A stretch of 64,000 bases of DNA from a virus, in the IMG/VR virus record IMGVR_UViG_3300027816_000057. One strand, written 5' to 3'. This document shows positions 5,325 through 63,167 of the stretch, in pieces. The notes under the pieces were generated by a model. The model saw nothing but the letters and a program-made list of their open reading frames with translations, made no database searches and was not told the DNA's origin. Within the stretch, counting starts at the first letter, position 1; each line of letters opens with the position of its first letter. Both the position numbers and the translations under genes were made by a program.

Positions 5325-5351
5325 TTAAAATAAAAAAATTGCCGATATAAT
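5325..5351 (+). promoter_or_regulatory. class I phage promoter TTAAA-N-GATATAAT (representative of about 50 copies)
   Basis: TTAAAA-N15-TATAAT with ATG 5 nt downstream; same motif before dozens of genes. Confidence 0.8.
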
Positions 5352-5356
5352 AAAGC

Positions 5357-5641
5357 ATGGAACCGCAAGTTGACGACATTATCCGAATCGCGGATCGGCC
5401 AATTTCCGAAAAACTTCTTCCGGGCGATGATTTCTCGGATAGTGGTTATCCGGGTAGTCAATTCCGGATTCTTGCAAACGGAGGATTGGGTCCGATTATA
5501 TCCGTGGCGGTCAATGTTAAGATAACCGGAAAAAAGACGGTTATGTATAACGGAGCCTGCTGGCTGCGTTGTCAAATTGAGTTTGTGGGGGATTGTGAAC
5601 CCTCTACATTCTGTCACGGTTTCATTAAACAACGATTCTAA
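5357..5641 (+). CDS. hypothetical protein (leaderless)
   Basis: GATATAAT-N5-ATG. Confidence 0.7.
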   Translation: MEPQVDDIIRIADRPISEKLLPGDDFSDSGYPGSQFRILANGGLGPIISVAVNVKITGKKTVMYNGACWLRCQIEFVGDCEPSTFCHGFIKQRF

Positions 5642-5656
5642 TAGGATAGAATAAGT

Positions 5657-6001
5657 ATGGGATATTCTTATACCGTTAAGGCTGGACATTCCTACGATTA
5701 CATGCTTTCAATCCTGCGGGCGAATGAGCCTTCCGATGGTCCGTGTAACCAATGGACGTACAAAGGGCAGAAGTATTTTGAGGAGTCTAGTCGCCGCGAA
5801 CATGCAGACGGTAGGATTACGTCAACGGTATACCGAACCGATGCTAATAATCTCTGCCAAAAGGTCGGCGGTATTCTGATTTCGGCGGATGGTACGGTAG
5901 TCCGTTGGCCGACAAGTTCTGCGGGGCTACGAAAAGCTGCTAAAGATTTCTCGGACGCTAAAACTCAACTTCATCTTCCTATGAAACGGTTTGTTGGTTA
6001 A
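5657..6001 (+). CDS. hypothetical protein (leaderless)
   Basis: GATAGAAT-N4-ATG. Confidence 0.7.
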   Translation: MGYSYTVKAGHSYDYMLSILRANEPSDGPCNQWTYKGQKYFEESSRREHADGRITSTVYRTDANNLCQKVGGILISADGTVVRWPTSSAGLRKAAKDFSDAKTQLHLPMKRFVG

Positions 6002-6029
6002 GAACTTTCTTTGTAAGATATAATAACGT

Positions 6030-6186
6030 AATGGTGGTTTCAAGGTTTAGACCATAATCGGGGACGTAGCTGCTCTACCGACAAAAACCGAAAAAAGATA
6101 GGACACAATAGGGTTCGATTCCCGTGCTGGTAGCTGAGTGTTCTATAACTTTTCGGGTGCCGCGTTCCCTGCGGTGCCCGTTTTTT
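6030..6186 (+). ncRNA. candidate small RNA
   Basis: GATATAAT at 6017; only an 8-codon ORF; GGGTTCGATTCCC T-loop-like hairpin; strong terminator at 6154-6186. Confidence 0.45.
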
Positions 6187-6407
6187 ATTTAGTCCTCATT
6201 CTTACAAATTTTAAGCAATAATAGAAAATAGTTTTTCGTAGTCAGTGGATTAAATAATACGGGCGGCAAGATATAATATAGTGACTATGGCGTGATATAA
6301 TCTATTTAACTTATTTTGTAAAATATATTTTTATTGTTGCAATGAATTAAAAAGAAACCCCGTGAGGATATAATAGAGAGTACCCAACCTCAACTCGAAA
6401 GGTTATC

Positions 6408-6578
6408 ATGGACGAATTTGATTGTACGGACGAAATTCAGTGTGAGGAATTTTACGATGATTCAACCCTTGATGATTGGGAGGACGATCGAGAGGATAGT
6501 TTTCCGGATTGGTCCGATGCTGAATTCGATGAAACCGATCCGCACGATGATTATGATCCGTCCGATGGTAACTTTTAG
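6408..6578 (+). CDS. hyperacidic 56-aa protein (not in ORF track)
   Basis: GAAAGG SD; MDEFDCTDEIQCEEFYDD...; 26 of 56 residues D/E. Confidence 0.7.
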   Translation: MDEFDCTDEIQCEEFYDDSTLDDWEDDREDSFPDWSDAEFDETDPHDDYDPSDGNF

Positions 6579-6683
6579 TGTCGTCACTTAAATTGGTCCG
6601 GAATTGGGTAAGATAGAGAAAATATAGCTGACATAAGAAAACAGCCGAAGGCTCCTCTACGCCAATTTAAGTTCATTCCTTGG

Positions 6684-6712
6684 AAATCCCGGTGTATGCC
6701 GGGATTTTCGTT
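6684..6712 (+). terminator. intrinsic terminator
   Basis: AAATCCCGG/CCGGGATTT hairpin plus T-rich tail. Confidence 0.7.
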
Positions 6713-6750
6713 TACTGATTAAATTTCTCAATCGACGGATATAATAAAGT

Positions 6751-7065
6751 ATGGAAAACTACGATGCTGTTCTGGCTGAATTCTTGATTGTTCATCAGAA
6801 AAAGATTGGCGATTACTACGCTGAACACTTTAAGAATTTGACGCCGGAAAATTTGGAAATTCGTAGCGGCAGCCGATATGATAGGATTGTGAGAGTTGGT
6901 AACGGTGCTGGAAACGGTTCAGCTTGGGCTTTTATCGACCGAACAAACGGCGATATTCTGAAGCCTGCTAGCTATAAGGCTCCCGCCAAACATGCCCGAG
7001 GAAACCTTTTTAACCGCGAATCTTGGGAAAAGATTACCGCATACGGTCCTCCATATCTAAAGTAA
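6751..7065 (+). CDS. conserved phage protein (leaderless)
   Basis: GDILKPASYKAPAKHARGN motif common in phage proteins. Confidence 0.75.
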   Translation: MENYDAVLAEFLIVHQKKIGDYYAEHFKNLTPENLEIRSGSRYDRIVRVGNGAGNGSAWAFIDRTNGDILKPASYKAPAKHARGNLFNRESWEKITAYGPPYLK

Positions 7066-7068
7066 TTT

Positions 7069-7090
7069 AAGGGGTTTAATCCCCTTTTTT
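7069..7090 (+). terminator. intrinsic terminator
   Basis: AAGGGG/CCCCTT plus T-run. Confidence 0.75.
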
Positions 7091-7166
7091 ATTTGCATAA
7101 TCTAATCAAATATATTTTATCGTTCCAATGAATTAAAAAATAACATACATAAGGATAGAATATAGC

Positions 7167-7403
7167 ATGTTTATTATCTTTCGCAAAGTTACTAGCGTTA
7201 AAGATCACTATTCTAGATCAATTAACGTTGGTCCCTGTAGTATCGAATTTAAGAAAATGATTTACACTGTCAAAGATAATAATTTGGCAGTCGGTATTTT
7301 TCCTGAAGAAACCGATCGTATGCCGATTATTGTTTTTAATCCAACTGTTGATTTTGAAATCTCAGAAACTTGTCCCGACGATATCGGTTTGGTTAATTTC
7401 TAG
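7167..7403 (+). CDS. hypothetical protein (leaderless)
   Basis: GATAGAAT-N5-ATG. Confidence 0.65.
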   Translation: MFIIFRKVTSVKDHYSRSINVGPCSIEFKKMIYTVKDNNLAVGIFPEETDRMPIIVFNPTVDFEISETCPDDIGLVNF

Positions 7404-7425
7404 GCATCCAAGGATATAATAGGAC

Positions 7426-7602
7426 ATGGAAAAGATCAAAACTCAAGAAGAAATTATCCAAGAAGGATATCAGGCTTTCGTGGATGCTTTGAATATTGAT
7501 GATTGTCCGTATAAAACTAATGAAAATATGTCGGCTTGGAAAAAGGGTTATACCGAAGCCGAAAATGATTATTTCGATGCTTTGGACCAAGATTACGCTT
7601 AA
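7426..7602 (+). CDS. RMF/CrpP-fold-like 58-aa protein (not in ORF track)
   Basis: EGYQAF-x7-CPY-x7-AWKKGYTEA matches the RMF pattern GYQA...CPY...W..G; GATATAAT-N5-ATG. Confidence 0.6.
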   Translation: MEKIKTQEEIIQEGYQAFVDALNIDDCPYKTNENMSAWKKGYTEAENDYFDALDQDYA

Positions 7603-7630
7603 ATATGCCATAGGCAGGATATAATAGACT

Positions 7631-7846
7631 ATGCCAAAAGCACTTGAATTGAAGCCGGGAACGAAGTTTCGACTTAAGATGCCCGGTATTAGGGATGTTG
7701 TTTACATCCGCCCGGAAGTAGTTTCTGATGGTCCGGTATTGTGGGTGGATAATGGAAAACTTTACTGTTCTTGTATGGGCAACTTTCAGACATACTTTTC
7801 CGACAATCCCGAAGTGATTGTAACCGACGAAAAAATCACGATCTAG
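7631..7846 (+). CDS. hypothetical protein (leaderless)
   Basis: GATATAAT-N5-ATG. Confidence 0.7.
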   Translation: MPKALELKPGTKFRLKMPGIRDVVYIRPEVVSDGPVLWVDNGKLYCSCMGNFQTYFSDNPEVIVTDEKITI

Positions 7847-7861
7847 ACGATACAATAATGT

Positions 7862-8002
7862 AGTACCGGGTCTGCATCCTGAACAAAATAAAGGAAACCA
7901 AAACCCGACTGAATAGTTATTGGCGGTTTTCTCTGGTCCGCCGTTATATCACCAAAACCGGGAATCCATGTCTGCTCGGTATGAAAATACCGGGCGGATT
8001 TT
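7862..8002 (+). ncRNA. candidate small RNA
   Basis: GATACAAT at 7849; no credible ORF; terminator-like hairpin at 7971-8002. Confidence 0.4.
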
Positions 8003-8055
8003 AGACGGTCGCCCAATACGTCGTAAAAATCTACCATCTAAGGATACAATAAACC

Positions 8056-8328
8056 ATGCCAAAGAATCCCCAACCATCCGCAATTATTATCTACAAATCT
8101 AGTGAAGTGTTTGAGGATGCTCATTCTTCTGATATGGACTTGGAGAATCCACACAACATTTTTGGTCAATTAAATAGGGACGGAGGATATAATTGGGGAG
8201 GGAATGATAAAACTCTTGTGGCTGTGCATTGGGTAGAAAATTACATTAACGCGAATGATCTTTCAACGAACGATCGGCAGCGTTTGCGTAGTTTGCCAGA
8301 ATCGGCCTACATTGATCTTGAAAATTAG
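8056..8328 (+). CDS. hypothetical protein (leaderless)
   Basis: GATACAAT-N5-ATG. Confidence 0.7.
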   Translation: MPKNPQPSAIIIYKSSEVFEDAHSSDMDLENPHNIFGQLNRDGGYNWGGNDKTLVAVHWVENYINANDLSTNDRQRLRSLPESAYIDLEN

Positions 8329-8351
8329 CCTACGGCAGGATATAATAGATT

Positions 8352-8501
8352 ATGAAAGTTATTATCTATACATTCTTTGGTAAGGTTCTAAAGGAATTCC
8401 CCGTTCCTGATAATCAAACGCACCATGCAACATTTGAGGAAGCTAGAGAGTGGGCACTTTCTAATTTAGATTTCAATAAGTGGTGGATTCGAGTAGACTG
8501 A
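8352..8501 (+). CDS. 49-aa hypothetical protein (leaderless, not in ORF track)
   Basis: GATATAAT-N5-ATG; MKVIIYTFFG... Confidence 0.6.
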   Translation: MKVIIYTFFGKVLKEFPVPDNQTHHATFEEAREWALSNLDFNKWWIRVD

Positions 8502-8665
8502 GGGGCTTTAATTCCAAAGTCCTCATTTTTGCATTTTTTAGCATAAATTAGTAATTACTTTTTGACAGTCGGCAACTTAAATAATTGCGGCGGCGGATAT
8601 AATATATTGACTGTTGTTGTAAAAAACAAAGCAAAATAAAAAGCGTATCGCTACGCCTTTGTTTT

Positions 8666-8833
8666 TTAAGTAACTTCTTTCACCGAGAGAACTTTAATCA
8701 AATTTGGATCACAACGCAACATAAAGAAAATTTGATAAAAAGCACGCTTGCTGAATAATTCGGCATTACTAGACATTCCCTCCACATCGTAAACTTTGCG
8801 GCCTTTTTGAACTTGTGCGATGAATTTCTTCAT
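8666..8833 (-). CDS. 55-aa hypothetical protein (leaderless, not in ORF track)
   Basis: Minus-strand GATATAAT-N5-ATG; MKKFIAQVQK...; bidirectional hairpin at about 8638-8660. Confidence 0.6.
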   Translation of the reverse strand: MKKFIAQVQKGRKVYDVEGMSSNAELFSKRAFYQIFFMLRCDPNLIKVLSVKEVT

Positions 8834-8926
8834 ACGCGATTATATCGCAAGCAATCGGTAATTTTATTAGACTGTCTTTTCTTTCCTATTGAATAAAACT
8901 GTGCCGTAGGCACGATATAATGATCT

Positions 8927-9265
8927 ATGAAAGAAACCTTCACTATCGAACGAAATGGTTTCCGAATCACTGGCGAAATTAAGCCCGCTCGGAATAGTTA
9001 TATTCGCACCCATGTAACGATTCTTGATGATCGTTATGGAAACAATTCAAATTCGGCGTGGGCGGATGCCTGCGATGAAGTTTACAAGATTTACGGTGCA
9101 AGTGTAACCGAAGATAACACTGTCGGTCAAATTGTGCAAACGTCCGGTAATGCCAATCAATACGCTAATACTCCTGTTCGTGGTCGATCATTCCAAATGT
9201 CGTGTAACCTGTGGGGAAAGAAGGTACGCGAATTGCATAAGCGTATCACCGATGCTATCAAGTGA
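8927..9265 (+). CDS. hypothetical protein (leaderless)
   Basis: GATATAAT-N5-ATG; terminator at 9269-9292. Confidence 0.7.
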   Translation: MKETFTIERNGFRITGEIKPARNSYIRTHVTILDDRYGNNSNSAWADACDEVYKIYGASVTEDNTVGQIVQTSGNANQYANTPVRGRSFQMSCNLWGKKVRELHKRITDAIK

Positions 9266-9371
9266 CTTAAAGGGGATTTAATCCCCCTTTTTATTATTTT
9301 AATTTTCCTTGCTACTGGCGTCACCCGTCATTGTATTCTATCATTGTTGCGGGATAATTTTCCCGCTTTTC

Positions 9372-9473
9372 TTATCGCTTAACGTGGCCTTTTCCGTTAC
9401 AATGTTTACAAGTTTGAACGCCGTGAGGATAATAATACTTTCGTCCAATACCTTTGCAATGTTGGCATTTCAT
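9372..9473 (-). CDS. 33-aa DnaJ-type zinc-ribbon microprotein (not in ORF track)
   Basis: MKCQHCKGIG...CKHCNGKG; minus-strand GATATAAT-N5-ATG. Confidence 0.65.
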   Translation of the reverse strand: MKCQHCKGIGRKYYYPHGVQTCKHCNGKGHVKR

Positions 9474-9622
9474 GGATGATTATATCATCCAAATAGAGTT
9501 TTTAACTATGTAATATTCTTAAATCTCAGCCGGTAGGCGATATAATATATGACTAGCTACTTATCTAATAGTAATATTTATTGAAACAAATTAAAAACTA
9601 ACCATAAGCCGATAGAATAGGC

Positions 9623-9838
9623 ATGAACGAAAAGATTAACACCAAAAACGATGGCGACTTGGGATATTTAGCGTTCTATACTAAAAAGGGAAAACGAGGC
9701 GAAGTTTGGGCAAAAACATCGGCGGATGCTCAAAAAATTGCGGCGGCTTTTTGGAAGGTTAAAAAGTCCTACGAAGTTAGTGTCTATCTTTGTGTGCGAT
9801 CTGAGGGATCGGAAGTCGTCCATACGTCGGTGGATTAA
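9623..9838 (+). CDS. hypothetical protein (leaderless)
   Basis: GATAGAAT-N4-ATG. Confidence 0.7.
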   Translation: MNEKINTKNDGDLGYLAFYTKKGKRGEVWAKTSADAQKIAAAFWKVKKSYEVSVYLCVRSEGSEVVHTSVD

Positions 9839-9943
9839 CTTGACGGTGCCTGATATTATCTAAACAATAATAATTCTATTTAAATCAACTTAAAAAATCC
9901 GCTGGCAACGATATAATGTTGTGTAACCACAAGGAATTAACCG

Positions 9944-10123
9944 ATGCGAATTGATCCCGACGAATTTTTTAATGTTCTTTCTCGTTATATTGAAGAAGTT
10001 GCAAAGGATAAGATTCGAGATAAATTTAATGAGAATCACGGATATAGTAACTACGGCACCCGCGACAACCTTCATGAATCTGAAAGAGAATTGAAGGCTA
10101 TGATTGAAAATATGATGCGTTAA
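9944..10123 (+). CDS. 59-aa hypothetical protein (not in ORF track)
   Basis: Promoter at 9910; AAGGA SD; MRIDPDEFF... Confidence 0.6.
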   Translation: MRIDPDEFFNVLSRYIEEVAKDKIRDKFNENHGYSNYGTRDNLHESERELKAMIENMMR

Positions 10124-10137
10124 GGATAGAATCGGCA

Positions 10138-10446
10138 CTGCCGATTTGTTGTAGGGTTTACCCTACCGTCAATACTGAGGCTGTTACCCGACGTTAAACG
10201 TAACCAGCCTTCCTTTCGGCGGACGCTGAATAAAGGATAGACTAATCCTTGATAAAATAAAAAGTAGCCTATGGCATGTCGAAAGATTGCCAACGGCTTT
10301 AACAATATAGTCTAGAAAACCGTTAAGGGTTAGTATAGGCTACCGATTGGTGCCTCTTAACAGGCTCGCTAAAATAACCAAAAGGGACCGTTATTCTCCG
10401 GTTAGGGCTTTGACCCAACAGCCAAGAGAAATCTTGGATAATCGGA
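10138..10446 (+). ncRNA. candidate structured ncRNA of about 310 nt
   Basis: GATAGAAT at 10125; closing stem CCGATT/AATCGG; several internal stems; no credible + ORF. Confidence 0.55.
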
Positions 10447-10553
10447 AATAACACTATTTCTATGATATAATATAATGACGGTAACTTTGTAAAAGTAACA
10501 TAAAAAATTTTGCCATGTAATAAAATAATCCCATAGGGATGATATAATACATT

Positions 10554-10736
10554 GTGAAACACCTAGACAAACTTATTCAAGAATACGGCACGGATGGTAT
10601 TTCTTACCTTCTTGAATCCGTTATCCATAAAATTCCCGATGAGGATAAAAACAAAAACGGTTGGGAAAAAGAATTAAAAAAGGTGTCGGATGATCTTAAA
10701 CTCTCACTAAAGGAATACCGTGAGTCACAAGGTTAA
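10554..10736 (+). CDS. hypothetical protein (leaderless GTG)
   Basis: GATATAAT-N5-GTG. Confidence 0.6.
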   Translation: MKHLDKLIQEYGTDGISYLLESVIHKIPDEDKNKNGWEKELKKVSDDLKLSLKEYRESQG

Positions 10737-10959
10737 ATTTTACGCAATTGATAGCGGCGAACCTTCGGCGGGCATCCTTCCTTCTTTCGAGGAAATCGAA
10801 ATTAATTTTGTCCATAGTGGTCCTATGGATTTTGAGAAGGAAGATTTGGAAAACATCGCTAGTTTTTTTAGCGATTTCTACAATGGTGCCCGAATTTTGT
10901 CGGAAAAGCAATATAATGATATGATCGAAGCGGAAAATAATTTGCCCGAGTTGGATTAA
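10720..10959 (+). CDS. acidic hypothetical protein
   Basis: AAGGA SD. Confidence 0.6.
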   Translation: MSHKVKFYAIDSGEPSAGILPSFEEIEINFVHSGPMDFEKEDLENIASFFSDFYNGARILSEKQYNDMIEAENNLPELD

Positions 10960-10987
10960 AACGCCATAGGCGAGGATATAATAGAGT

Positions 10988-11218
10988 ATGAACATCGAAA
11001 TCGTCCCGATTATCCGAAAGCTTAACGAATGCCGATATGGAGATATTGTAAAGTTTGTGCCTTCAGATGGTAAAACTCATACTTGTTTGGTAATGTATCA
11101 AGGCATGGTATCTTTTAATGATCCCGAATCTACTTGGACTTATTCTTCGCAAGGCGAAGAAAATATAGTCGGAAATTATGAAGTCGAATTGGTCGGACAA
11201 CTTAAACTTTCATCGTAA
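10988..11218 (+). CDS. small beta-rich paralog family member
   Basis: MNIEI...GDIVKF...YEVELVGQL; leaderless. Confidence 0.7.
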   Translation: MNIEIVPIIRKLNECRYGDIVKFVPSDGKTHTCLVMYQGMVSFNDPESTWTYSSQGEENIVGNYEVELVGQLKLSS

Positions 11219-11296
11219 CACGATAGAATAGAGCGTAGCAACTAAGCTACAAACCTACCGGTGGTTTACCGGGGAATTCCTAAAAAGGAATTAAAC

Positions 11297-11515
11297 ATGC
11301 AGAAGCGTTTTGTTCGTAAGATGGTTTTTGTTGGCGGGCAGTATCGCGGTTGGGGCGTTATGGATACTCGATGCTGGAATACGCCGCATTGGGTTCGGGA
11401 TGTGTACGGTAATATCATCGCGGTCGAGGACGAGGATAACGCGGCGATGGTCGCAGATAATCTTAACTACGATTTTCGACTGGATTTGAATCGTGATTTG
11501 ATGCCGATTATGTAA
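11297..11515 (+). CDS. hypothetical protein
   Basis: AAGGA SD; start refined to MQKRF. Confidence 0.6.
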   Translation: MQKRFVRKMVFVGGQYRGWGVMDTRCWNTPHWVRDVYGNIIAVEDEDNAAMVADNLNYDFRLDLNRDLMPIM

Positions 11516-11533
11516 TTTCTACGAAAGATAAAA

Positions 11534-11767
11534 ATGTTTAAGATTGAATCTCGTTTTCCGGAACAATTAACTTTGGGTCAGGCTGTTAAGAGGGGAGGAA
11601 GTTTTATTTTTAAAGATAGCGAAAAAGAGGATGCTCTTGCTATCTTTGAAAACGGAAACGTCGTAGCTATTTTTAATGACGGGACTTTTACTACCGATAT
11701 CTCTATTCTTCGCCACCGAGACTTCTATCCGTGTTCGGTTGAAATTAAGGCTCTTTTGACAAATTAA
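11534..11767 (+). CDS. small beta-rich paralog family member
   Basis: MFKIE...RDFYPCSVEI. Confidence 0.65.
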   Translation: MFKIESRFPEQLTLGQAVKRGGSFIFKDSEKEDALAIFENGNVVAIFNDGTFTTDISILRHRDFYPCSVEIKALLTN

Positions 11768-11786
11768 TGAAAGTGGCTAGAAAGTG

Positions 11787-11815
11787 GCTAGGTAGAAATA
11801 CCTAGCTTCTTATTT
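11787..11815 (+). terminator. terminator with GTA-GAAA-TAC hairpin
   Basis: GCTAGGTAGAAATACCTAGC plus T-rich tail. Confidence 0.7.
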
Positions 11816-11871
11816 TGCACTAATCAAATTAGCCTGCTTTAAAAACGCCGTAGGCGGGGATATAATATCTT

Positions 11872-12153
11872 ATGATTATCCAAGACAGCCGAACGCCGGA
11901 AGAAAAGAAAAACACCATCGGTTATGTTGTGGGAACGGATAAATTTTTGTCGGGTTGGGGATCAGCCCGAGGAGGATCATCGTTTTTTGCAGTCTCTATC
12001 ACGAATCACGAGCATTTAGATAGCGTTATGAAAAAGATGAATAATCATAGCGATTTTAAAAACGTTCGATTTAATTTGCGTTCGTGGCGTCCAAAGGGTG
12101 AAGGACACACTCACATTGTTGGACCAACTAAATCAAATTGCTGGTACAAGTGA
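11872..12153 (+). CDS. conserved phage hypothetical protein (leaderless)
   Basis: TDKFLSGWGSA motif; GATATAAT-N5-ATG. Confidence 0.7.
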   Translation: MIIQDSRTPEEKKNTIGYVVGTDKFLSGWGSARGGSSFFAVSITNHEHLDSVMKKMNNHSDFKNVRFNLRSWRPKGEGHTHIVGPTKSNCWYK

Positions 12154-12164
12154 TATAATAGCCT

Positions 12165-12602
12165 ATGGCATATAAGAATAAATCTTTGATTGCAGCCTGT
12201 CTACTTTTTATTCCATCGCTCGGTGCGGGAACCGCTGGCTTCGATTGGGATAGATTCCTTGCGGCTTTGCAAAAAGTTGAATCCGGCGGGGTAAAAAATC
12301 CCGATACTGCTGTAGGCGATAACGGAAAGGCTTTAGGTCGCTATCAATTGCACCAAAACTACGTTTTGGATGCAAAGGCATACGACGGGACTTTGGTAGG
12401 CTCTTATAGGGATATAGCTACCCATCCGGTAGACTCAGGTAGGGCAGTGACAGCCTATCTAACACGGTACGGACGTGCCGATATTGAGGCGGGAAATATC
12501 GAGAATCTAGCTAAAAAGCACAATGGAGGACCGACCGGCCATAAGAAAAAGGCAACAGAAAAGTATTGGAAGAAGTTTAAAAGCATCTATGATGCGATAT
12601 AA
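12165..12602 (+). CDS. secreted lysozyme-like / lytic transglycosylase-fold protein
   Basis: Signal-peptide-like N-terminus; VESGG, GDNGKALGRYQ and HNGGP motifs. Confidence 0.75.
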   Translation: MAYKNKSLIAACLLFIPSLGAGTAGFDWDRFLAALQKVESGGVKNPDTAVGDNGKALGRYQLHQNYVLDAKAYDGTLVGSYRDIATHPVDSGRAVTAYLTRYGRADIEAGNIENLAKKHNGGPTGHKKKATEKYWKKFKSIYDAI

Positions 12603-12608
12603 TCAGTT

Positions 12609-12773
12609 ATGAAAAAGATCGATCACGAAAATGATGACAAACTTTTTCTGAAAAATTCCACGGATCGGAGAATCCATTGGACAAATTGTTATCCGAAGCG
12701 TGGGCAGAGATATAAGAAGGTTGGTTGGGCTTTTGAGTGGCGGAATAACGGAATTCGCCGACCGAATAATTAA
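12609..12773 (+). CDS. 54-aa hypothetical protein (leaderless, not in ORF track)
   Basis: GATATAAT-N5-ATG. Confidence 0.55.
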   Translation: MKKIDHENDDKLFLKNSTDRRIHWTNCYPKRGQRYKKVGWAFEWRNNGIRRPNN

Positions 12774-12775
12774 AG

Positions 12776-12847: not shown

Positions 12848-12867
12848 TTTAACAGAAAGGATATCGA

Positions 12868-54853: not shown

Positions 54854-54854
54854 T

Positions 54855-55085: not shown

Positions 55086-55102
55086 TTTTTAAGAGAGAAA
55101 AT

Positions 55103-55579: not shown

Positions 55580-55922
55580 TGTCAATCGAAAGAATTTAGT
55601 TAGTAAATTAATCGCTAATAGAGAATTGCATATCTCAAATTACAAAAGAGCGATTACAGGATATTATAAAGAACGTAATTGTATAATTAAAGAAATGTTC
55701 GATAAAGTTATGAATAATGTGGATTTTTCTCATAACGAGATGTTGGCCGAATTAGATAAACCTTCTTCGCACGAAAAAGATTATGACGCATATATTGAAA
55801 TGTACTCAAATTCCGTCGATGAAACGATAGAATTAGCTGAGCAAGAATTCAAAATGCTATTCCTAGATCAATGGAATTGGCATCAAAGATTTAATGATAG
55901 CGTGACAAAATATGTCAAGTAA
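55566..55922 (+). CDS. conserved hypothetical phage protein
   Basis: P.SH.KDYD..I.M...DQWNW motif. Confidence 0.7.
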   Translation: MKPINVNRKNLVSKLIANRELHISNYKRAITGYYKERNCIIKEMFDKVMNNVDFSHNEMLAELDKPSSHEKDYDAYIEMYSNSVDETIELAEQEFKMLFLDQWNWHQRFNDSVTKYVK

Positions 55923-56511
55923 TTTTAAAGATAAAGTCAATCAAGGCTTAATTATCCATGAGGATGGTAAAGAAGAATTACTATCTTCTTATTTACAGCA
56001 AACTTCAGTACTTCATATATATAGCGGATCATTTAATCCGTTGCATGATGGACACAGAGAAATATTTGACTCTATATCAGATAATACTCCATTAGCACGA
56101 AAAATATTTGAAATATCTACATTGAGAGTTGGAAAAGAAGATTTAACTGAATTTGAAGTTATTGAAAGAACAAAACAATTTGATTATTATGCCAAACTGC
56201 TTGTAACAGATCAATCTTTGTTTATTGATAAATTAAAAGTAATTAAGAATCAAAACAGCGATTGCTCTGTAATTTTCCATATTGGAGACGACACTTTTAT
56301 TAGGCTTGCACAACATCATACACAGAAAGAATTATCAAAATTTGATTGTAAATTCGTAGTCTATCCTAGATCAAGAGAAAAACTACTAGAATATAGACAG
56401 TTGTGCAGATATCAAGAATTTTTTGGTAATTTTTACTGTGATAATTTTATGTTTAATCTTCAAAATAGAAGATATTACAATCTTTCGTCTACCGAAATTA
56501 GAAATAGATAA
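55912..56511 (+). CDS. NadD-like HxGH nucleotidyltransferase (putative NMN/NaMN adenylyltransferase)
   Basis: SGSFNPLHDGH, IGDDT and LSSTEIR. Confidence 0.8.
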   Translation: MSSNFKDKVNQGLIIHEDGKEELLSSYLQQTSVLHIYSGSFNPLHDGHREIFDSISDNTPLARKIFEISTLRVGKEDLTEFEVIERTKQFDYYAKLLVTDQSLFIDKLKVIKNQNSDCSVIFHIGDDTFIRLAQHHTQKELSKFDCKFVVYPRSREKLLEYRQLCRYQEFFGNFYCDNFMFNLQNRRYYNLSSTEIRNR

Positions 56512-56517
56512 ATATTT

Positions 56518-56600
56518 GCCGTCGTGTACCGAATTGGTATGGTACCGGTTTTGTAAACCGGCGAGGAAACTCATTGCAGGTTCAAGTCCTGTCGGCGGCT
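56518..56600 (+). tRNA. tRNA-Thr(TGT) with long variable arm
   Basis: GCCGTCG/CGGCGGC; anticodon arm CCGGT-TTTGTAA-ACCGG; V-arm GAG-GAAA-CTC. Confidence 0.85.
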
Positions 56601-56878
56601 TTATATTGAGATTTAATTAATGAGTAAGAAAAAGTATCCAACAATTTTGACTGGCAACGATTATGCTATATCTAAAGAATTAAAAACAAGAAAACATAAA
56701 TTTGAAATTAAAAAAGCGAATATAGGATATATTTATGGTAAAAATTGTGGATATAAAAAATTGATACTTTTATATCGAGATTCTTTCCCTTCTAAACTAT
56801 CAATACAAAGATTAATTAAAAATAGAAATTTACCTTGGCCTGATTCAAAAATGTTAATCAACACGATAGAATATAAAT

Positions 56879-57982
56879 ATGAATCCAGCAGAAATAGTTA
56901 ATCAGTTCGACTCGATTAAAATTCTTTTACAAGAATTAGATAAATTAGTAGCTGATGGCTATATTTATGAATCCAAAAAGGGTTCACTATCACTATTCAA
57001 TTATTCTGATAAATGCTGTTTTGAAAAACTCTGGAATCCGGTTACTCGTTTAGCACGCGGTCTTATTATTGATCGTGAAAGCGAGCAAATTATATGCTGG
57101 CCTATTCCTAAGTTTTTTAACTATCTTGAAAATATTAATGACAAAATTCCCGATCTCTCATTTGAAATACAAGAAAAAATAGACGGTTCTTGTATATTTT
57201 TATGGATGTATCAAGGTGAATGGTTTTGTTCTACGCGGGGTTCTTTTAATAGCGACCAAGCGGCTTGGGCACAAGACTATATTAATTCTATTTTACATAA
57301 TCTTAATTTATACGCCGACACAACTTATATATTTGAGGTTGTTTATCCCGGTAATAAAATAGTAGTAAATTATAATGGCTACGCCGGATTGTATTCTTTG
57401 ACAGGCTATCAAAATGGAATTGAGGTTGATAAACTATTTTTAGACGATACTTTTCAATATGCTAATTCTCAGAATTCTGATACTATTCGTTTTCCTAAGA
57501 TGTATTCTTACGAAAATATAGAATCTTTAGTTGAAATATGTAAGACTCTTCCGAAAGACGAAGAAGGTTTTGTCGTTCGCTGGAATAATGGTTTTCGTTT
57601 AAAATTCAAAGGTGCGGAATATTTACGAGTTCATAAACTCATTAGTCAAGTTACTCCACTTGGCATTTGGGATATTCTGTGTAATAATGATAATGTTGAT
57701 AATGTAAAACAACAATTACCTGAAGAATTCTGGAATGATTTTGATAGCATAGCCGAAAAACTTAAATTTAAATTTCAACATATAAAATCTCATAATATTC
57801 TTTGGGTTTTAGCTGAAGAAAAAATGAATAATTTAGATAGAAAGACATTTGCGAAGCAGGCTATAGAATCATCTAAAAATGATCCTATTTTAAATACCGC
57901 TTTGTTATTTAAAATATATGACGGAAAAGATATAGATGATATGATTTGGAAAATGATTCGGCCAACGGGTAATGTATTATGA
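56879..57982 (+). CDS. T4 Rnl1-like RNA ligase
   Basis: ARGLI, KFFN, EKIDGS, STRGSF, EGFVV and KFK..EY. Confidence 0.88.
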   Translation: MNPAEIVNQFDSIKILLQELDKLVADGYIYESKKGSLSLFNYSDKCCFEKLWNPVTRLARGLIIDRESEQIICWPIPKFFNYLENINDKIPDLSFEIQEKIDGSCIFLWMYQGEWFCSTRGSFNSDQAAWAQDYINSILHNLNLYADTTYIFEVVYPGNKIVVNYNGYAGLYSLTGYQNGIEVDKLFLDDTFQYANSQNSDTIRFPKMYSYENIESLVEICKTLPKDEEGFVVRWNNGFRLKFKGAEYLRVHKLISQVTPLGIWDILCNNDNVDNVKQQLPEEFWNDFDSIAEKLKFKFQHIKSHNILWVLAEEKMNNLDRKTFAKQAIESSKNDPILNTALLFKIYDGKDIDDMIWKMIRPTGNVL

Positions 57983-58437
57983 ATATTCTAATATCACTTT
58001 TTTGTATTGTCTTTATTGTTTTTATAGTGTCGCTATTAATTATAGACGCCATTATGTGTAATATATGTCCTGATTGCAGCAAAAAAGAATGGAAGTACAT
58101 GACTGAGAAATGGAACGATCTTCCGTTTCCAGATAAAGAAATTCGAGAGTGTGTAAACTGCGGTTGTCGTCAGTGGTATAATGACGGTTACGGTAATTGT
58201 GATGGAGCTTGGTCGTCTTATGAGAATAACAATAATTAGCTGTACAAGCAAATATAAAAGTAGTAGACAAAATCACGACGTTGTTTATTATGCCGTTGTG
58301 ACTGAAGTAGAAACGGGTTGTCCTTTTTTATTGGGTGAAAATATATATAGAACAATTACCGGTTTATCAGTTGTTCCACAAAAATATTCCACAGAAGCGG
58401 TAGTCCATCCAGATAGTTATGATTTTTGGGAGAGAAT

Positions 58438-58806
58438 ATGAATAATGAAATCTTTGTTTTTGGTTCCAATCTGGCTGGCAGGCACGGCAAAGGATCGGCC
58501 CTAGAAGCCCGTTTAAACCACGGAGCCAAATACGGATGCGGGGTTGGTCGCCAAGGTCAATCCTACGCCATACCCACCAAAGACAAAAATCTAGTGGTTC
58601 TAGATTTAAACGTAATTGAAAAATATGTGGATGAATTTGTGTCTTACGCGATACTGAATCCCGATTTAGTTTTTAATGTAGTTAAAGTCGGATGCGGATT
58701 AGCTGGCTACAAAGATGAAGAAATGGCACCATTATTTAAAAATGTGCCAAACAATGTAAAATTACATCCCGATTGGGATAGAATATTAGGAAGAAATTAT
58801 GAATAA
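58438..58806 (+). CDS. conserved phage protein, macrodomain-like (IFVFGSN family)
   Basis: IFVFGSNLAGRHGKG, SYAIPTK and VGCGLAG. Confidence 0.75.
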   Translation: MNNEIFVFGSNLAGRHGKGSALEARLNHGAKYGCGVGRQGQSYAIPTKDKNLVVLDLNVIEKYVDEFVSYAILNPDLVFNVVKVGCGLAGYKDEEMAPLFKNVPNNVKLHPDWDRILGRNYE

Positions 58807-59356
58807 CTGTATTTGCTATTTTACTAATACCGCGTTTCCGAAATCCGATTATCATAATATTGCAGTTGCTGAATTAGTTTTATCTGCTGATGGAAGCACT
58901 GTAATTAAAAATAGATTTGGACCGACAGGAAGAATAGTTGCTAATGATGAAAAATCTGAAAAGGCCGAACTTCAAAGATTGATTACAAAATATTTAATCG
59001 AGAATTAAAAATGACCGAACAAGAAGAAATAAGTTATATTGATAAGCATAAAAGCATCAACTATTTAGTTATTGATTTTGGCGTAATTTCTTTACAGGAC
59101 TTTATTGATAAAGTGCTTGATTTAGGCACGGAACAAGACTTATCTAAGATTATGATTCGTTTTGATGCTGGTTATGAAACGGTTACTCTTGATACGATAA
59201 AAGAAAAAAGTCAAAAAGAACTAGATCAAGAGATAGAAGCTATCAAACTAAAATACCGAAAAGAAGAAGAAAAAAAAGAAAACGCGAAAAAAGCAAGACA
59301 AAAAATTAAACAATTAGAAGAAGAAATTTGGCAACTAAAAATGAAACTATAAATTT

Positions 59357-59977
59357 ATGATATCATCTAAATATAACGAATATACTTTTTTAACTAGCGA
59401 TAATCATTTTCAACATGAAAATATAATTAAATATTCCAATAGACCATTTTCTTCTGTTAAAGAAATGAATGAATGTATGGTTGAAAATTGGAATAACTCG
59501 GTGACTTCTGATGAATATATTGTATATGATTTAGGCGATGTCTGCCTAGGTTACAAAGAAACAATGAGAGATATTGTTTCTAGACTTAACGGAAGAATCC
59601 GTCTTCTAAAAGGCAATCATGAAGGCGTTTTAAATGTTGCAAAAGACAGATTTGAATGGGTAAAAGATTACCATGAAGAAAGTTTTGAAATCAACGGGAA
59701 TTCTCAAAAAATTGTAATGTGTCATTATCCAATCGAGGACTGGAATTGTAAAAATAAAAAATCTTGGATGATACACGGTCATTCCCACGGAATTTTACCT
59801 AATAAAATCCCATTTCGATTTGATGTAGGCGTTGATAGCGTAGCTTCATATCTAACTCAAAAAGATAGAGATTCAGGATTGTGGAATAGTATTAAGAATA
59901 ATCCTAAACATTATAGACCGATTTCTCTAATAGAACTAGCTGAAATATTTGAGGACGATTATGCAAAATCAGGATAA
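59357..59977 (+). CDS. calcineurin-like phosphoesterase
   Basis: SDNHF, LGD, GNHE, HYP and HGHSH. Confidence 0.88.
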   Translation: MISSKYNEYTFLTSDNHFQHENIIKYSNRPFSSVKEMNECMVENWNNSVTSDEYIVYDLGDVCLGYKETMRDIVSRLNGRIRLLKGNHEGVLNVAKDRFEWVKDYHEESFEINGNSQKIVMCHYPIEDWNCKNKKSWMIHGHSHGILPNKIPFRFDVGVDSVASYLTQKDRDSGLWNSIKNNPKHYRPISLIELAEIFEDDYAKSG

Positions 59978-60515
59978 GCCTTATCTAATATTGATTGGCG
60001 GGCCAAGCGGGAGTGGCAAATCTACTCTTGCTAGAACTATTATAAATAGTTTTCATCCTCTACCATTCTATATGTTTGAGGCTGATGATTATTTTAACAA
60101 AAATAGTGAATATAATTTTAATCCTAAAGGATTGGGACAGGCCCACAAAGAATGCTGGAATAATGTTTTATATAATATAAAACACGGCTATAACACAATT
60201 GTTTCTAATACTTTTACTACTCACAAAGAAACCGAAAGATATTTAAATTTAAATAATTGTCAAGTTTACTACACCTTTCCTAATCGTATTAGGCATATGG
60301 ATATAGAAGATTTTTGTAAATCCTCAATTCATAAAGTCCCCAAAGAAACTATTAAAAAACAATACGATAGGTGGTTTGATTATGTGAATAATAATATGGA
60401 TTTAAGTCATTATCTAATTAGCGAAGAAGATTTGTTAGAAAAATTAGAAAAAGAGAGAGAAAAATATGTTGAGTCTAGAAATACTGTACTACATGGAGAA
60501 CCGAAGTCAAGATAA
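59961..60515 (+). CDS. P-loop polynucleotide kinase-like protein
   Basis: GPSGSGKSTLA, EADDYF, AH..C, VSNTF and H.VP. Confidence 0.8.
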   Translation: MQNQDKPYLILIGGPSGSGKSTLARTIINSFHPLPFYMFEADDYFNKNSEYNFNPKGLGQAHKECWNNVLYNIKHGYNTIVSNTFTTHKETERYLNLNNCQVYYTFPNRIRHMDIEDFCKSSIHKVPKETIKKQYDRWFDYVNNNMDLSHYLISEEDLLEKLEKEREKYVESRNTVLHGEPKSR

Positions 60516-60897
60516 GAATAAGACTATAGATGAAACAGTATATTTAGGAATTAACGATAAAAGAGAATATTATTATGGATATGAAACAAACAATCTTTAT
60601 AAGTCAGGTATTAAAGCTAGTGACGATCAACAGTACGGCCCCTATACTAAAAATGAAGTTTTAGAGATCGCTAAGAAACGCGATAATTTAACCAATGATT
60701 CTACAAAACAATGGTATTTATTGTGGTGTGCTTTGTATGATGAAGTAATTCAAAATATTAAATAATGGATGAATTTAGAAAACATTTTTTTGAAAGATTT
60801 GTAAGATCAGGATGTCCCTGTTGCCAAGGGCCGGGTACTCAAAAATCATTCAAAAAGAAAACACGAAAGATTACTCGTAAAAGATTAAAAAATAAAG

Positions 60898-61401
60898 ATG
60901 AGAAACAAAGCCAATCAATATGATCCTAGAGGATATGTAAAAAATAAACCAATCATCTATCTAGATTTAGATGGTGTTTTGACTGATTTTCAAGGACATT
61001 TAAATAACTATAATAAATCTTCCGGTTTAAAAATTACCGCCTATGAAATAGGAACGGTTGATTACAACTGGTGGGCGACTATGCCTTGGACAAAATGGGG
61101 TAAAGATTTATATGATTACTGCAATAACCTTTGCTATACTTGTATTTTATCTTCTGCTGGTGGACACCCGGAAGCTGCTAAAGGTAAAACTATTTGGTTA
61201 GAAAAAGAAGGTATAAAAGATTACATTCTTTCTGGTTCTAAATGGGCAGTAGCTAATAATAAGACTTTGTTAATAGACGACACTCCTAAGAAAGTAGATA
61301 AATTTATCTTAGCCGGTGGTGTAGGTCTTTTATTTTCTGAAGAAAAATTAGAAGGTATTTATAAAGCTGTAAAAGAATGGGCAGATTATCATAGTGTATA
61401 A
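60898..61401 (+). CDS. HAD 5'(3')-deoxyribonucleotidase-like protein
   Basis: DLDGVLTDF, GK..WL and LIDD. Confidence 0.85.
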   Translation: MRNKANQYDPRGYVKNKPIIYLDLDGVLTDFQGHLNNYNKSSGLKITAYEIGTVDYNWWATMPWTKWGKDLYDYCNNLCYTCILSSAGGHPEAAKGKTIWLEKEGIKDYILSGSKWAVANNKTLLIDDTPKKVDKFILAGGVGLLFSEEKLEGIYKAVKEWADYHSV

Positions 61402-61410
61402 TATTAAACT

Positions 61411-62289
61411 ATGCCTAAAATCATATTTGATAATCTTAGCTACAGAGAAGGTAAAACGCCAGCAGAACAATTAGGATTTATTCCTCTTAATTTTTGTAAT
61501 AGAGGATTTTACGGATTAGTTAACGGTCAAATATCTTACGATTTTCCTCCTAATCCAAATGATACAGTAAATACAATTCAATCTATTAGACAAGATCAAG
61601 ATTTGTATTTTGATTTAGAGCCTTGGTTTTGTTTGCCCGATCACGCATCTAGTGTAGACAAGATTAAGAAAAAAGTCTATGCTTTAGATTTATTGTTTAA
61701 TTTTAAACAAACTTATCCTAATTTTAATAAATATTTAGGATGTTTTGGGATACCCGATGGTAATATACATCCTCAAAATCCTTCAGAGGCTATTGAAATT
61801 TGGAAAAATAAAAACCGTAAATTAATGAGCGGCGAAGTTTGGAATTTGATTTATTCTAAATTAAGCTGTATGTTTCCTTGTTGTTACCCATATGATTATG
61901 GAAATGGAAACAGTGTTGAAACCAACAGACTTCAATTTATATATAATCAATTACAGCTAGATATTATAAAAGAACATAACACGAGAAATCTTCCTGTCTT
62001 TGCTTTTTGGCAACCTAGACTTAAAAAAGCAGACGGATCAAGACCTTTTATGAACTACGCTGATACTGTTACTCAATTAAATTGGCTATTATCTCGTTGC
62101 GACGGTGTAGTATTATGGGATTGGGACGGTCAAATAGACCCGCAAACCGGAGATATTGCCGTTTGGGATGATGATGCTCCTTGGTTAAAAGCCGCACAAG
62201 ATGTTTTAAAAAGTTTCAATAGACCGGCTCAATATGCGACTATAAATAAAAACAATGTTACACCTTTTAGAAGCCGTTTTTCAGGTTAA
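61411..62289 (+). CDS. glycoside-hydrolase-like TIM-barrel protein
   Basis: YFDLEPW, P..Y and DGVVLW; related to 39889-41460; GTGTATAAT promoter. Confidence 0.5.
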   Translation: MPKIIFDNLSYREGKTPAEQLGFIPLNFCNRGFYGLVNGQISYDFPPNPNDTVNTIQSIRQDQDLYFDLEPWFCLPDHASSVDKIKKKVYALDLLFNFKQTYPNFNKYLGCFGIPDGNIHPQNPSEAIEIWKNKNRKLMSGEVWNLIYSKLSCMFPCCYPYDYGNGNSVETNRLQFIYNQLQLDIIKEHNTRNLPVFAFWQPRLKKADGSRPFMNYADTVTQLNWLLSRCDGVVLWDWDGQIDPQTGDIAVWDDDAPWLKAAQDVLKSFNRPAQYATINKNNVTPFRSRFSG

Positions 62290-62318
62290 AAAAAATTCGC
62301 ATCTGATATAATATATAC

Positions 62319-63167
62319 ATGGATTATCCTAAATTTTGTGATCATCCCGATTTTCTAGCATTAACGGGGTCAAGATTATACGGTTATCATACCGAAAAAT
62401 CGGATTATGATTATCGCGGTTTTGTTGTGCCTCCCTCTAAATATCTTCTTGGTATAGAGAATTTTTTATTCCACCAAAAGAAAGATACTGACACTATAGT
62501 TTTTTCACTAAAGCATTTTATAGATATAACTCTAAAAGGAAATACTCAAACTTTTGAGATTCTTTTTTCTAATGATATACAACATAGTCAGACCGGATAT
62601 GAATTACTTTCTTTGCGTAAAAATTTCTTTAGTCAAAAGATAATACGTTCTACTTTAGGTTTTGCTTTAAGCGAGTGGAGGAAAACTCTTTCTCAGGCTT
62701 TAGTATTTGAATATCGTGATTCAAAACAAGAAGAAATACTAACTCAATTAGCCGGAACCTTTCAACTTAAAAGAGATGAAATAAAAGAAATATACGATAT
62801 AATATTTAGAGAACGAATAGACGACGATCCGCGTCGATATGTTCCTAATGATAAAATAGGCGAAAAAGCTAAACTAGATATACAGCAGTATGGATATCAA
62901 TTAAAACCTGCCTGTAATACAATACGTTTACTTTGCCAAGCAATAGAATTTGTTGAAACCGGCAAAATAACATATCCCCGTCCGGAATTATCGGTACTTA
63001 AAGATATACGATCCGGTTTACTGTCTTATGCAAATGTAAATGATTTATTTAATGAATATTATAATAAATTATCTAAAATTGATTTGTCTAGTTTACCGGT
63101 AAAACCAAATCATAATGGTGTTATGGAATGGTATCGGGACGTAGCCGAAAAGGAGATTAAAAATTGA
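62319..63167 (+). CDS. Pol-beta superfamily nucleotidyltransferase (RlaP/YcgL-like)
   Basis: GSRLYG..SDYDYRG; leaderless. Confidence 0.8.
   Translation: MDYPKFCDHPDFLALTGSRLYGYHTEKSDYDYRGFVVPPSKYLLGIENFLFHQKKDTDTIVFSLKHFIDITLKGNTQTFEILFSNDIQHSQTGYELLSLRKNFFSQKIIRSTLGFALSEWRKTLSQALVFEYRDSKQEEILTQLAGTFQLKRDEIKEIYDIIFRERIDDDPRRYVPNDKIGEKAKLDIQQYGYQLKPACNTIRLLCQAIEFVETGKITYPRPELSVLKDIRSGLLSYANVNDLFNEYYNKLSKIDLSSLPVKPNHNGVMEWYRDVAEKEIKN

Follow-up and report, generated by a model that had tools for sequence, protein, structure and literature searches.

The middle and late promoters of the Thermus thermophilus phages phiYS40 and P23-45 were reportedly described by Sevostyanova et al. in 2007. The middle and late transcripts of phiYS40 are mostly leaderless (PMC3594737). 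Among bacteria, the GeneMarkS-2 group C genomes (Actinobacteria, Deinococcus-Thermus) have a Pribnow box 6–8 nt from gene starts (PMC6028130), and a -10 motif beside open reading frames (ORFs) of Deinococcus (D. radiodurans) is an experimentally validated promoter of leaderless genes (PMC12340547). For a single gene, the classic leaderless mRNA of a phage is that of lambda cI, made from PRM (Shean and Gottesman 1992, cited in PMC12340547); AR9 has 5' untranslated regions of 26–491 nt, and no leaderless transcript was detected in phiKZ (PMC5312081, PMC8244752). The T4-type phages RB49 and phi1 carry promoter cassettes termed PeSLs (Arbiol et al. 2010, PMC2839356). Here we describe, in a 64,000-nt stretch of the IMG/VR virus record IMGVR_UViG_3300027816_000057 (hereafter the window), a two-box element that we read as a promoter family, together with 40 -10 boxes of this family that stand so close to a start codon that the genes behind them are probably expressed from leaderless mRNAs. 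All counts refer to this window, in which an earlier sequence-only reading had noted the arrangement between 5,325 and 62,321.

The pattern of promoters set against AUGs is real; arrangements of this kind were known before, from Thermus phages and from the promoter cassettes of T4-type phages, and the present one is a variant of them. With phiYS40, also a large AT-rich phage (152 kb), the window shares a -10-like box directly upstream of the start codon, many transcripts that start (or here would start) at or beside AUG, and the idea that translation of leaderless mRNA forms part of the phage programme. The leaderless classes of phiYS40 are, however, middle and late and have no -35 box, whereas the array described here stands at the head of the early region and its upstream box is fixed. 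Exact TATAAT-N4-7-ATG occurs 4 times in the first 50 kb of phiYS40 against 4.1 expected, the box there being loose; lacking this enrichment and differing in gene content, phiYS40 was rejected as a relative. Its annotation lists a single DNA polymerase, without a 5'-3' exonuclease domain.

The PeSLs offer a likeness in layout: each genome has about 50 strong, sigma-70-like promoter cassettes that are almost identical to one another and immediately precede small orphan genes of a plastic early region, in an AT-rich stretch that contains the stop codon of the preceding gene. The 57 copies found here lie mostly before ORFs of 50–170 aa without family matches, and a subset has a stem-loop. PeSLs nevertheless end in a Shine–Dalgarno (SD) sequence and ATG, whereas here no SD intervenes between the -10 box and the ATG 5 nt beyond it; the array has TTAAA as its -35 box, its stems measure 4–5 bp and occur in a minority of copies, and the phage is not T4-like. 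On this analogy the array is probably best described as PeSL-like but without SD. At the lambda cI promoter, too, transcription starts at the A of AUG, as predicted here, a few bases after the -10 box, yet for one regulated gene of a temperate phage rather than for about 40 genes. Group C genomes likewise place a Pribnow-type box a few bases before promoter-proximal starts, with SD at other genes, and a suitably placed -35 box strengthens the promoter; the differences are the spacing (4–6 nt here versus 6–8 nt in Mycobacterium tuberculosis), the rigid 8-mer GATATAAT in place of TANNNT, and the setting, which here is phage DNA of 30–40% GC.

The proposed promoter family and its start codons

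The sequence-only reading had reported some 39 genes starting 4–6 nt after a GATA(T/G/C)AAT box, and a motif search bears this out. The arrangement GATANAAT-N4-6-ATG has 43 matches on the two strands, compared to 1.81 ± 1.30 in dinucleotide-preserving shuffles, and the two-box form TAAA-N14-16-GATANAAT has 57, compared to 1.49 ± 1.23. All but three of the two-box copies (54/57) are on the plus strand, the strand of nearly all genes; they are dense from 5.2 to 32.6 kb and thinner from there to 62.3 kb. A position matrix anchored on the 8-mer, built from 58 copies found by script, shows an invariant AAA after T(T), 15 ± 1 nt upstream, and then G-A-TATAAT, with the -10 hexamer TATAAT itself in 46/58 copies (TAGAAT or TACAAT in most others) and an A directly 3' of the 8-mer, also in 46/58. 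The consensus of the class is thus (T)TAAA(A/T)-N15±1-GATATAAT-A. Of these 58 copies, all with an upstream TAAA, 32 have an ATG at an offset of 4–6 nt (25 at 5 nt, four at 4 nt and three at 6 nt), as compared to the approximately three that base composition predicts.

The matrix also agrees with the earlier statement that the upstream element is TTAAA(A/T) and not TTGACA. A sigma-70 -35 hexamer at 17 ± 1 nt does not emerge, the third-position G and fifth-position C being absent, though the best -35 reading, TTAAAA at 16 nt, still matches TTGACA at 4/6 positions. In location the copies do resemble sigma-70 promoters, lying upstream of, and co-oriented with, transcription units that include stable RNA genes. 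Because the same two-box element also precedes four tRNA genes (by 9–21 nt), we read it as a promoter family and not as a translation signal.

Forty copies lie 4–6 nt, mostly 5, before the first start of a real ORF, comprising 39 ATG and one GTG. Every start on the earlier list of 39 exists; 38 are ATG, whereas 10554 proved to be GTG, and the list had missed 56879, an RNA ligase gene. Two of the listed ORFs are short (49 aa at 8352 and, on the minus strand, 33 aa at 9473). We rejected 1624 (minus strand), 6031, 37846 and 41594 as gene starts, since their ORFs have merely 3–8 codons. Several properties mark the remainder as genuine: no ORF except that at 53840 could begin ahead of its motif-linked start, coding scores are positive, and ORFs of at least 50 aa follow 37 of the 43 motif-linked ATGs, as against 24% of all plus-strand ATGs. 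At 5-nt spacing the TAA within TATAAT is an in-frame stop, so that no N-terminal extension is possible. The 4–6 nt between box and start leave the 40 copies without an SD, and the apparent AGGA upstream of these ATGs is the AG-GATA of the box itself. Family matches were obtained for the products of 7426, 12165, 56879 and 62319, and weak ones, below cutoff, for that of 42108. Genes were called with our own simple script combining ORFs and coding score, and this crude caller missed or mis-started 5357, 8352 and 53840.

One promoter of this class can be followed into relatives. In two IMG/VR contigs (L001 and L002) the 62319 protein has an orthologue of 86% identity; before it, both keep a TTAAAAAA box and a GATAGAAT box, with ATG at 5 nt rather than 6. 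Relatives are present in the IMG samples 3300045999 and 3300048580.

Predicted start sites and leaderless messages

Bacterial RNA polymerase favours a pyrimidine–purine (Y–R) step at positions -1 and +1. The base before the ATG is a pyrimidine at 34/37 leaderless ATGs, compared to 42/85 other genes (Fisher 4e-6), and the 26 copies that have no ATG show the same step, with Y at offset 4 in 20/26 and R, mostly G, at offset 5 in 22/26. Because this step at the fifth and sixth bases is kept in coding and non-coding copies alike, +1 is predicted to be the sixth base after TATAAT in all copies, and the A of AUG wherever that base opens a start codon; the earlier placement of the transcription start there is consistent with both the geometry and the Y–R step. 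It follows from this geometry that about 40 genes in the window should be expressed from leaderless mRNAs, which we consider likely. RNA polymerase would open the promoter at TATAAT and start at the purine six bases on; in 40 copies that purine would be the A of ATG (the G of GTG at 10554), giving mRNAs without 5' leader or SD, whose 5'-terminal AUG would most likely be bound directly by 70S ribosomes. With G at +1, the same promoter would serve for tRNAs, for non-coding sequence and for a small number of SD-led genes, so that leaderless expression would amount to a design choice made gene by gene, and the small orphan genes, each with its own promoter copy, would act like PeSL cassettes minus the SD.

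Several points weigh against leaderless expression. Chief among them, the TATAAT-to-ATG gap of 5 nt is 1–2 nt shorter than the 6–8 nt of M. tuberculosis (PMC6028130), and were transcription to begin at the G of ATG, the start codon would be lost. In E. coli, too, the usual start position is farther from the -10 box than 5 nt. The leaderless ORFs have at least as much structure in their first 36 nt as other genes do, and their exclusive use of ATG is not significantly different from that of SD-led genes. Finally, leadered or read-through transcripts of the same genes likely exist and could be translated by re-initiation, given the tandem copies 72–97 nt upstream and the promoters inside preceding gene ends.

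This last point can be taken further, to the view that translation from the adjacent ATGs mostly uses longer transcripts, by termination–reinitiation or 70S scanning, with leaderless transcripts minor or untranslated. The tandem copies ahead of six genes would supply such transcripts, as would the at least seven promoters that lie within the 3' end of the preceding ORF, where stop-to-ATG gaps are 6–16 nt. More than 20 leaderless genes, however, follow gaps of 100–650 nt, often after terminator-like hairpins and without SD, and across such gaps coupling is impossible; nor does translation from longer transcripts give any role to the exact 5-nt phasing of ATG to box or to the conserved Y–R step at the predicted +1. 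We regard this alternative as improbable, and retain the prediction of leaderless messages for what follows.

The copies that do not abut a start codon show that the promoter has wider use. When the next gene starts 14–80 nt downstream, an SD is present in every such copy (-10 box to start: 6367 to 6408, 9910 to 9944, 15314 to 15402, 31286 to 31315, 58777 to 58799), and leader length is accordingly bimodal, either 4–6 nt without SD or at least 14 nt with SD. Upstream tandem copies precede six leaderless or leadered genes: besides the first, tabulated as P1, they lie at 6270, 9539, 10464, 13221 (with 13318) and 16612, each 72–97 nt before the second copy, with no ORF following and an (A)TAGTGAC-type sequence after them. 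At 8596 a copy stands alone, with a terminator-like hairpin and no ORF behind it. Many copies sit in the last codons of the preceding gene, and others come after terminator-like hairpins. Since the same promoter precedes tRNAs, non-coding stretches and SD-led genes with leaders of 14–80 nt, we read the class as a general early or delayed-early promoter that is not specific to leaderless genes. The earlier term 'regulon' would imply a dedicated regulator and a special translation programme, which this distribution does not support.

Three stretches behind such copies stand out. Between 6025 and 6150, a promoter at 6017 is followed by an 8-codon ORF and about 120 nt with a T-arm-like GGGTTCGATTCCC, closed by a strong terminator (6154–6180); the stretch may be a tRNA-like or other small RNA, and ARAGORN and Rfam make no RNA call in it. 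The full two-box copy at 13318 and the copy without TAAA at 10125 each precede 300–430 nt of GC-richer sequence with no convincing ORF (13330–13760 and 10133–10450), which may be non-coding RNAs or long leaders.

Part of the family has a further element in the spacer, a mini-palindrome CC(G/A)TAGG with covarying outer pairs just 5' of the -10 box, found in 12 copies that span 7.6–16.7 kb; the word occurs 21 times in the window, 12 times within these copies. Spacer stems of at least 4 bp occur in 15 copies versus 8.5 expected. We rejected N4-type hairpin promoters as an account of these stem-loops, as some 20 nt separate the loop from +1 and a stem is lacking in most copies. A scan of IMG/VR for CCGTAGG-N2-4-GATATAAT-N4-6-ATG returned 35 contigs, rejected as promoter arrays because in all but one the match falls in one and the same conserved coding sequence, which belongs to an unrelated phage family. 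These 34 viral contigs (L007–L041) carry the coding stretch CCGTAGG(A/C)CC(T/A)GATATAAT...ACATG, a chance look-alike in a widespread phage gene.

Leaderless design appears to extend beyond the main promoter class. A second class, GTGTATAAT, has one copy 5 nt before an ATG and another at 61394, 8 nt before ATG 61411 (5 nt in relatives, as seen in L001). In addition, the ATG of an ORF of 62–114 aa lies within 1–7 nt after 7 of the 10 tRNAs, so that tRNA 3' processing would give near-leaderless messages; the distance is 1–2 nt, usually TT or T, except 7 nt after Arg. Besides tRNA-Trp (Table 1), these starts are 14335 (Lys), 20023 (Glu), 21149 (Ile), 30991 (Met), 54180 (His) and 22079 (Arg). The tRNA–ATG pattern (207–54182) resembles mitochondrion-style tRNA punctuation. 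The remaining genes have AAGGA(G)-type SDs or overlap their upstream neighbour. With such design at two promoter classes and at tRNA junctions, it would not be tied to one regulator, and it looks like a general property of the phage–host system.

Altogether, about a third of the genes in the window would be read from a 5'-terminal or near-terminal AUG (40 from the main promoter, seven from tRNA junctions, two from the second class); should 5'-end mapping bear this out, the set would rank among the densest leaderless gene sets in a phage, and mobile promoter cassettes of PeSL type would be joined with leaderless phage transcripts in one genome. The fixed 8-mer, 5-nt gap and Y–R step would let leaderless starts be called from sequence alone. 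Standard gene callers relying on an SD will overlook such small genes in related metagenomic phages or call them wrongly.

Candidate readers of the promoter and the host

Directly upstream of the first promoter copy lies a GC-rich block (46–52%) headed by the gene for a protein that we read as a divergent sigma-70-family factor. As the sequence-only reading had stated, the genes of this block (3571–5121) use AGGAG SDs, located 6–8 nt before ATG at 3571, 4278, 4716 and 4970. The assignment of the 3571–4194 product rests on its family: the alignment shows an STW..W..N..RD region-2 signature and a C-terminal helix–turn–helix (HTH), the family profile matches RpoE region 2 (E 0.004) and SigF region 4 (E 0.03–0.04), and four of six family members match Pfam Sigma70_r2 (best E 5.6e-4), while the single sequence has no Pfam match below E 0.01. 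The nearest Atlas cluster is sigma-70 family (score 0.97). The structural model has a pLDDT of 65, and its top 29 and nearly all of its top 50 Foldseek matches are sigma factors, all at E of at least 0.35 and hence non-significant.

This putative sigma, made first from the SD-led immediate-early block, could itself read the 57 promoters as a delayed-early or middle class, a reading that we take as a serious rival but less likely than not. The family evidence above speaks for it, as does the position of the gene directly upstream of the first copy in a block that has no full promoter copy of its own: the sole upstream candidate there is TTGCAT-N17-TAGACT at 3310, and GATACAAT at 4682, before the third gene, lacks the TAAA box. 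As a lead rather than a test, TAAA with a spacer of about 15 nt also recalls the promoters of sigma-28/SigD. Promoters of sigma-28 (FliA/SigD/WhiG) read TAAA-N15-GCCGATAA. The likeness is an upstream TAAA and a spacer of about 15 nt to a GATA-containing downstream box; the difference is that the box here is GATATAAT with a full TATAAT and not GCCGATAA, with which it is out of register, aligning the GATA cores leaves the spacer 3 nt short, and, although TAAA and a 14–16-nt spacer are present, the bases before the box are not GCC. Against the phage sigma, moreover, a perfect TATAAT with its two base-flip positions is a primary-sigma target, two-domain sigmas resembling the extracytoplasmic-function group usually read other -10 boxes, and the genes behind the first promoters are still host-codon-adapted, as expected of true early genes. 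On the sequence evidence, the host primary sigma is slightly favoured as reader over the phage sigma.

If the host polymerase does read the array, the whole arrangement could be ordinary adaptation to a leaderless-rich host of the group C type (Actinobacteria, Deinococcus–Thermus or another GC-richer lineage), whose gene-start architecture the phage has copied; we put this at about even chances. The general leaderless design, at two promoter classes and after tRNAs, points towards a leaderless-competent host, and the architecture corresponds to the dual model of group C, with a Pribnow box at first genes and SD for the rest (PMC6028130). TATAAT is in addition the primary-sigma consensus. Codon usage fits an AT-rich phage in a GC-richer host, as for phiYS40 in Thermus: the phage tRNAs decode the A/U-ending codons AAA, GAA, AUA, AGA, UUA and ACA; ATA, AGA and TTA together make up 0–1% of codons in genes from 3.5 to 13.7 kb and 5–13% in later genes, and GC at third codon positions falls from about 0.5 to 0.2 along the early region (3571–20000). 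The tRNAs for Ile-UAU, Arg-UCU and Leu-UAA match these late-rising codons, which suggests that the early genes are expressed before phage tRNAs accumulate, in a GC-richer host. Against host adaptation stand the upstream box TTAAA in place of TTGACA, the block with the sigma gene just upstream that does without this promoter, and the conflict between weak host leads. One lead is the Atlas taxon of the sigma family, Cyanobacteriota. The other is a 188-aa protein (39326–39892) that the Atlas places closest to PEP-CTERM clusters of Verrucomicrobiota and Planctomycetota (scores 0.90–0.91) and that by structure matches a viral PEP-CTERM cluster (TM 0.55). NAMPT was rejected as a host marker, its relatives being scattered (an archaeon, Bacteroidaceae, Leminorella). 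A leaderless-rich host would keep the leaderless reading but strip it of its special status, so that whether the array exceeds host adaptation depends on the identity of the host.

The contrary case is an expression channel of the phage's own in a host that is not leaderless-rich. Here the SD-led, host-codon-adapted sigma would read some 60 TAAA-N15-GATATAAT promoters and, together with tRNA-punctuated ORFs, this would yield AUG-initial mRNAs, while the leaderless Rmf/CrpP-family protein (7426–7602) would dampen SD-dependent initiation on the messages of the host. The mode of initiation would thereby set phage translation apart from host translation. We think this unlikely. The 7426–7602 product, from a 58-aa leaderless early gene, matches Pfam RMF (35 bits) and NCBIfam NF041886 (32 bits), both above cutoff, and scores below the cutoff of the true RMF equivalog. 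We rejected the RMF match as a pointer to Gammaproteobacteria, because the broad Rmf/CrpP family also has phage members and the protein is therefore no host marker.

Feature coordinates, relatives and neighbouring elements

The window covers the early and middle regions of an uncultured tailed phage of about 163 kb, the longest contig with its proteins measuring 162,761 bp, and contains about 150 mostly small, co-oriented genes and 10 tRNA genes at 30–46% GC. Its recognisable proteins, a set typical of large lytic phages, are NAMPT, two RNA ligases, an RlaP-like nucleotidyltransferase, a RuvB-like ATPase and a DUF932 protein. The individual promoters are collected in Table 1.

Table 1. Coordinates of promoter copies and associated features in the window. 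Rows running from a -10 box to a start codon are based on a motif match and an ORF check, the family row on motif count and position matrix, and the tRNA-Lys row on tRNA and motif calls.
Positions	Strand	Feature	Spacing (nt)	Gene or remark
5229..62321	+	Promoter family (T)TAAA(A/T)-N14-16-GATA(T/G/C)AAT-A		57 copies
207..282	+	tRNA-Trp, then TT-ATG 280		80 aa
3571..4194	+	SD-led gene		putative divergent sigma-70-family protein, 207 aa (region 2 and C-terminal HTH)
5229..5255	+	Upstream tandem copy P1		96 nt before leaderless promoter at 5344; no ORF after P1
5344..5359	+	-10 box to ATG 5357	5	94 aa
5645..5659	+	-10 box to ATG 5657	4	114 aa
6348..6410	+	Promoter, leader, ATG 6408		33-nt leader with AAAGG
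6738..6753	+	-10 box to ATG 6751	5	104 aa
7154..7169	+	-10 box to ATG 7167	5	78 aa
7413..7428	+	-10 box to ATG 7426	5	58 aa, Rmf/CrpP-family protein
7618..7633	+	-10 box to ATG 7631	5	71 aa; spacer stem-loop TGCC-ATA-GGCA
8043..8058	+	-10 box to ATG 8056	5	90 aa
8339..8354	+	-10 box to ATG 8352	5	49 aa
8831..8846	-	-10 box to ATG 8833	5	55 aa; divergent from promoter at 8914
8914..8929	+	-10 box to ATG 8927	5	112 aa; spacer stem-loop GTGCC-GTA-GGCAC
9471..9486	-	-10 box to ATG 9473	5	33 aa
9611..9625	+	-10 box to ATG 9623	4	71 aa
10541..10556	+	-10 box to GTG 10554	5	60 aa; sole non-ATG case
10975..10990	+	-10 box to ATG 10988	5	76 aa
11859..11874	+	-10 box to ATG 11872	5	93 aa
12152..12167	+	-10 box to ATG 12165	5	145 aa, destabilase-like
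12596..12611	+	-10 box to ATG 12609	5	54 aa
13768..13783	+	-10 box to ATG 13781	5	68 aa
13986..14001	+	-10 box to ATG 13999	5	77 aa
14211..14332	+	Promoter, then tRNA-Lys	21	measured from -10 box to tRNA
15001..15017	+	-10 box to ATG 15015	6	83 aa
16292..16307	+	-10 box to ATG 16305	5	81 aa
16689..16704	+	-10 box to ATG 16702	5	166 aa
17206..17221	+	-10 box to ATG 17219	5	80 aa
18430..18445	+	-10 box to ATG 18443	5	89 aa
18992..19007	+	-10 box to ATG 19005	5	137 aa
19429..19444	+	-10 box to ATG 19442	5	79 aa
20756..20771	+	-10 box to ATG 20769	5	90 aa
21039..21146	+	Promoter, then tRNA-Ile	9	-10 box to tRNA; then TT-ATG 21149 (62 aa)
21962..22071	+	Promoter, then tRNA-Arg	9	-10 box to tRNA; then ATG 22079
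22996..23011	+	-10 box to ATG 23009	5	76 aa
23780..23905	+	Promoter, then tRNA-Leu	11	-10 box to tRNA
25218..25234	+	-10 box to ATG 25232	6	199 aa
25857..25872	+	-10 box to ATG 25870	5	82 aa
26909..26924	+	-10 box to ATG 26922	5	96 aa
28057..28072	+	-10 box to ATG 28070	5	135 aa
32577..32591	+	-10 box to ATG 32589	4	205 aa
38177..38192	+	-10 box to ATG 38190	5	129 aa
41496..41511	+	-10 box to ATG 41509	5	83 aa
42094..42110	+	-10 box to ATG 42108	6	164 aa; below-cutoff RlmB/TrmH-type RNA 2'-O-methyltransferase matches
43009..43024	+	-10 box to ATG 43022	5	105 aa
47147..47163	+	Second promoter class GTGTATAAT to ATG 47161	5	178 aa
53828..53842	+	-10 box to ATG 53840	4	85 aa; frame open upstream, overlaps end of gene 53170–53811
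56865..56881	+	-10 box GATAGAAT to ATG 56879	6	367 aa, RNA ligase; without TAAA box
62305..62321	+	-10 box to ATG 62319	6	282 aa, RlaP-like nucleotidyltransferase

A megablast search with 15 kb and tblastn searches with four proteins revealed no close cultured relative among 50,697 phage records; the RuvB-like tblastn matches were dismissed as bacterial-type genes. No early-region relatives were found in IMG/VR, JGI metagenomes or GTDB genomes with proteins 25232, 3571 and 16702 or the sigma relative P0004 (56% identical to the 3571–4194 product) as queries, nor did the sigma family alignment and P0011 as further queries add any, and these searches yielded no relative of the sigma together with its surrounding genes. 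Relatives were found solely for the 62319 region (L001 and L002 in IMG/VR).

Two further elements lie in and near the array. The word AGTCCTCATTTT(T)(A/G)C recurs directly after intrinsic terminators at 5159–5187, 6183–6211, 8510–8538, 13667–13695 and 16203–16231, with the next -10 box some 80 nt farther downstream (93 nt in the case of 13675) and with weaker copies at 2709 and 3043; it is possibly a third promoter class or a factor-binding site. Between 2195 and 2300, four copies of TTGTC(G/A)CGATT flank a GGACTATAAT -10-like box just upstream of the ORF at 2320, an arrangement that looks like an operator-controlled promoter of a different type.

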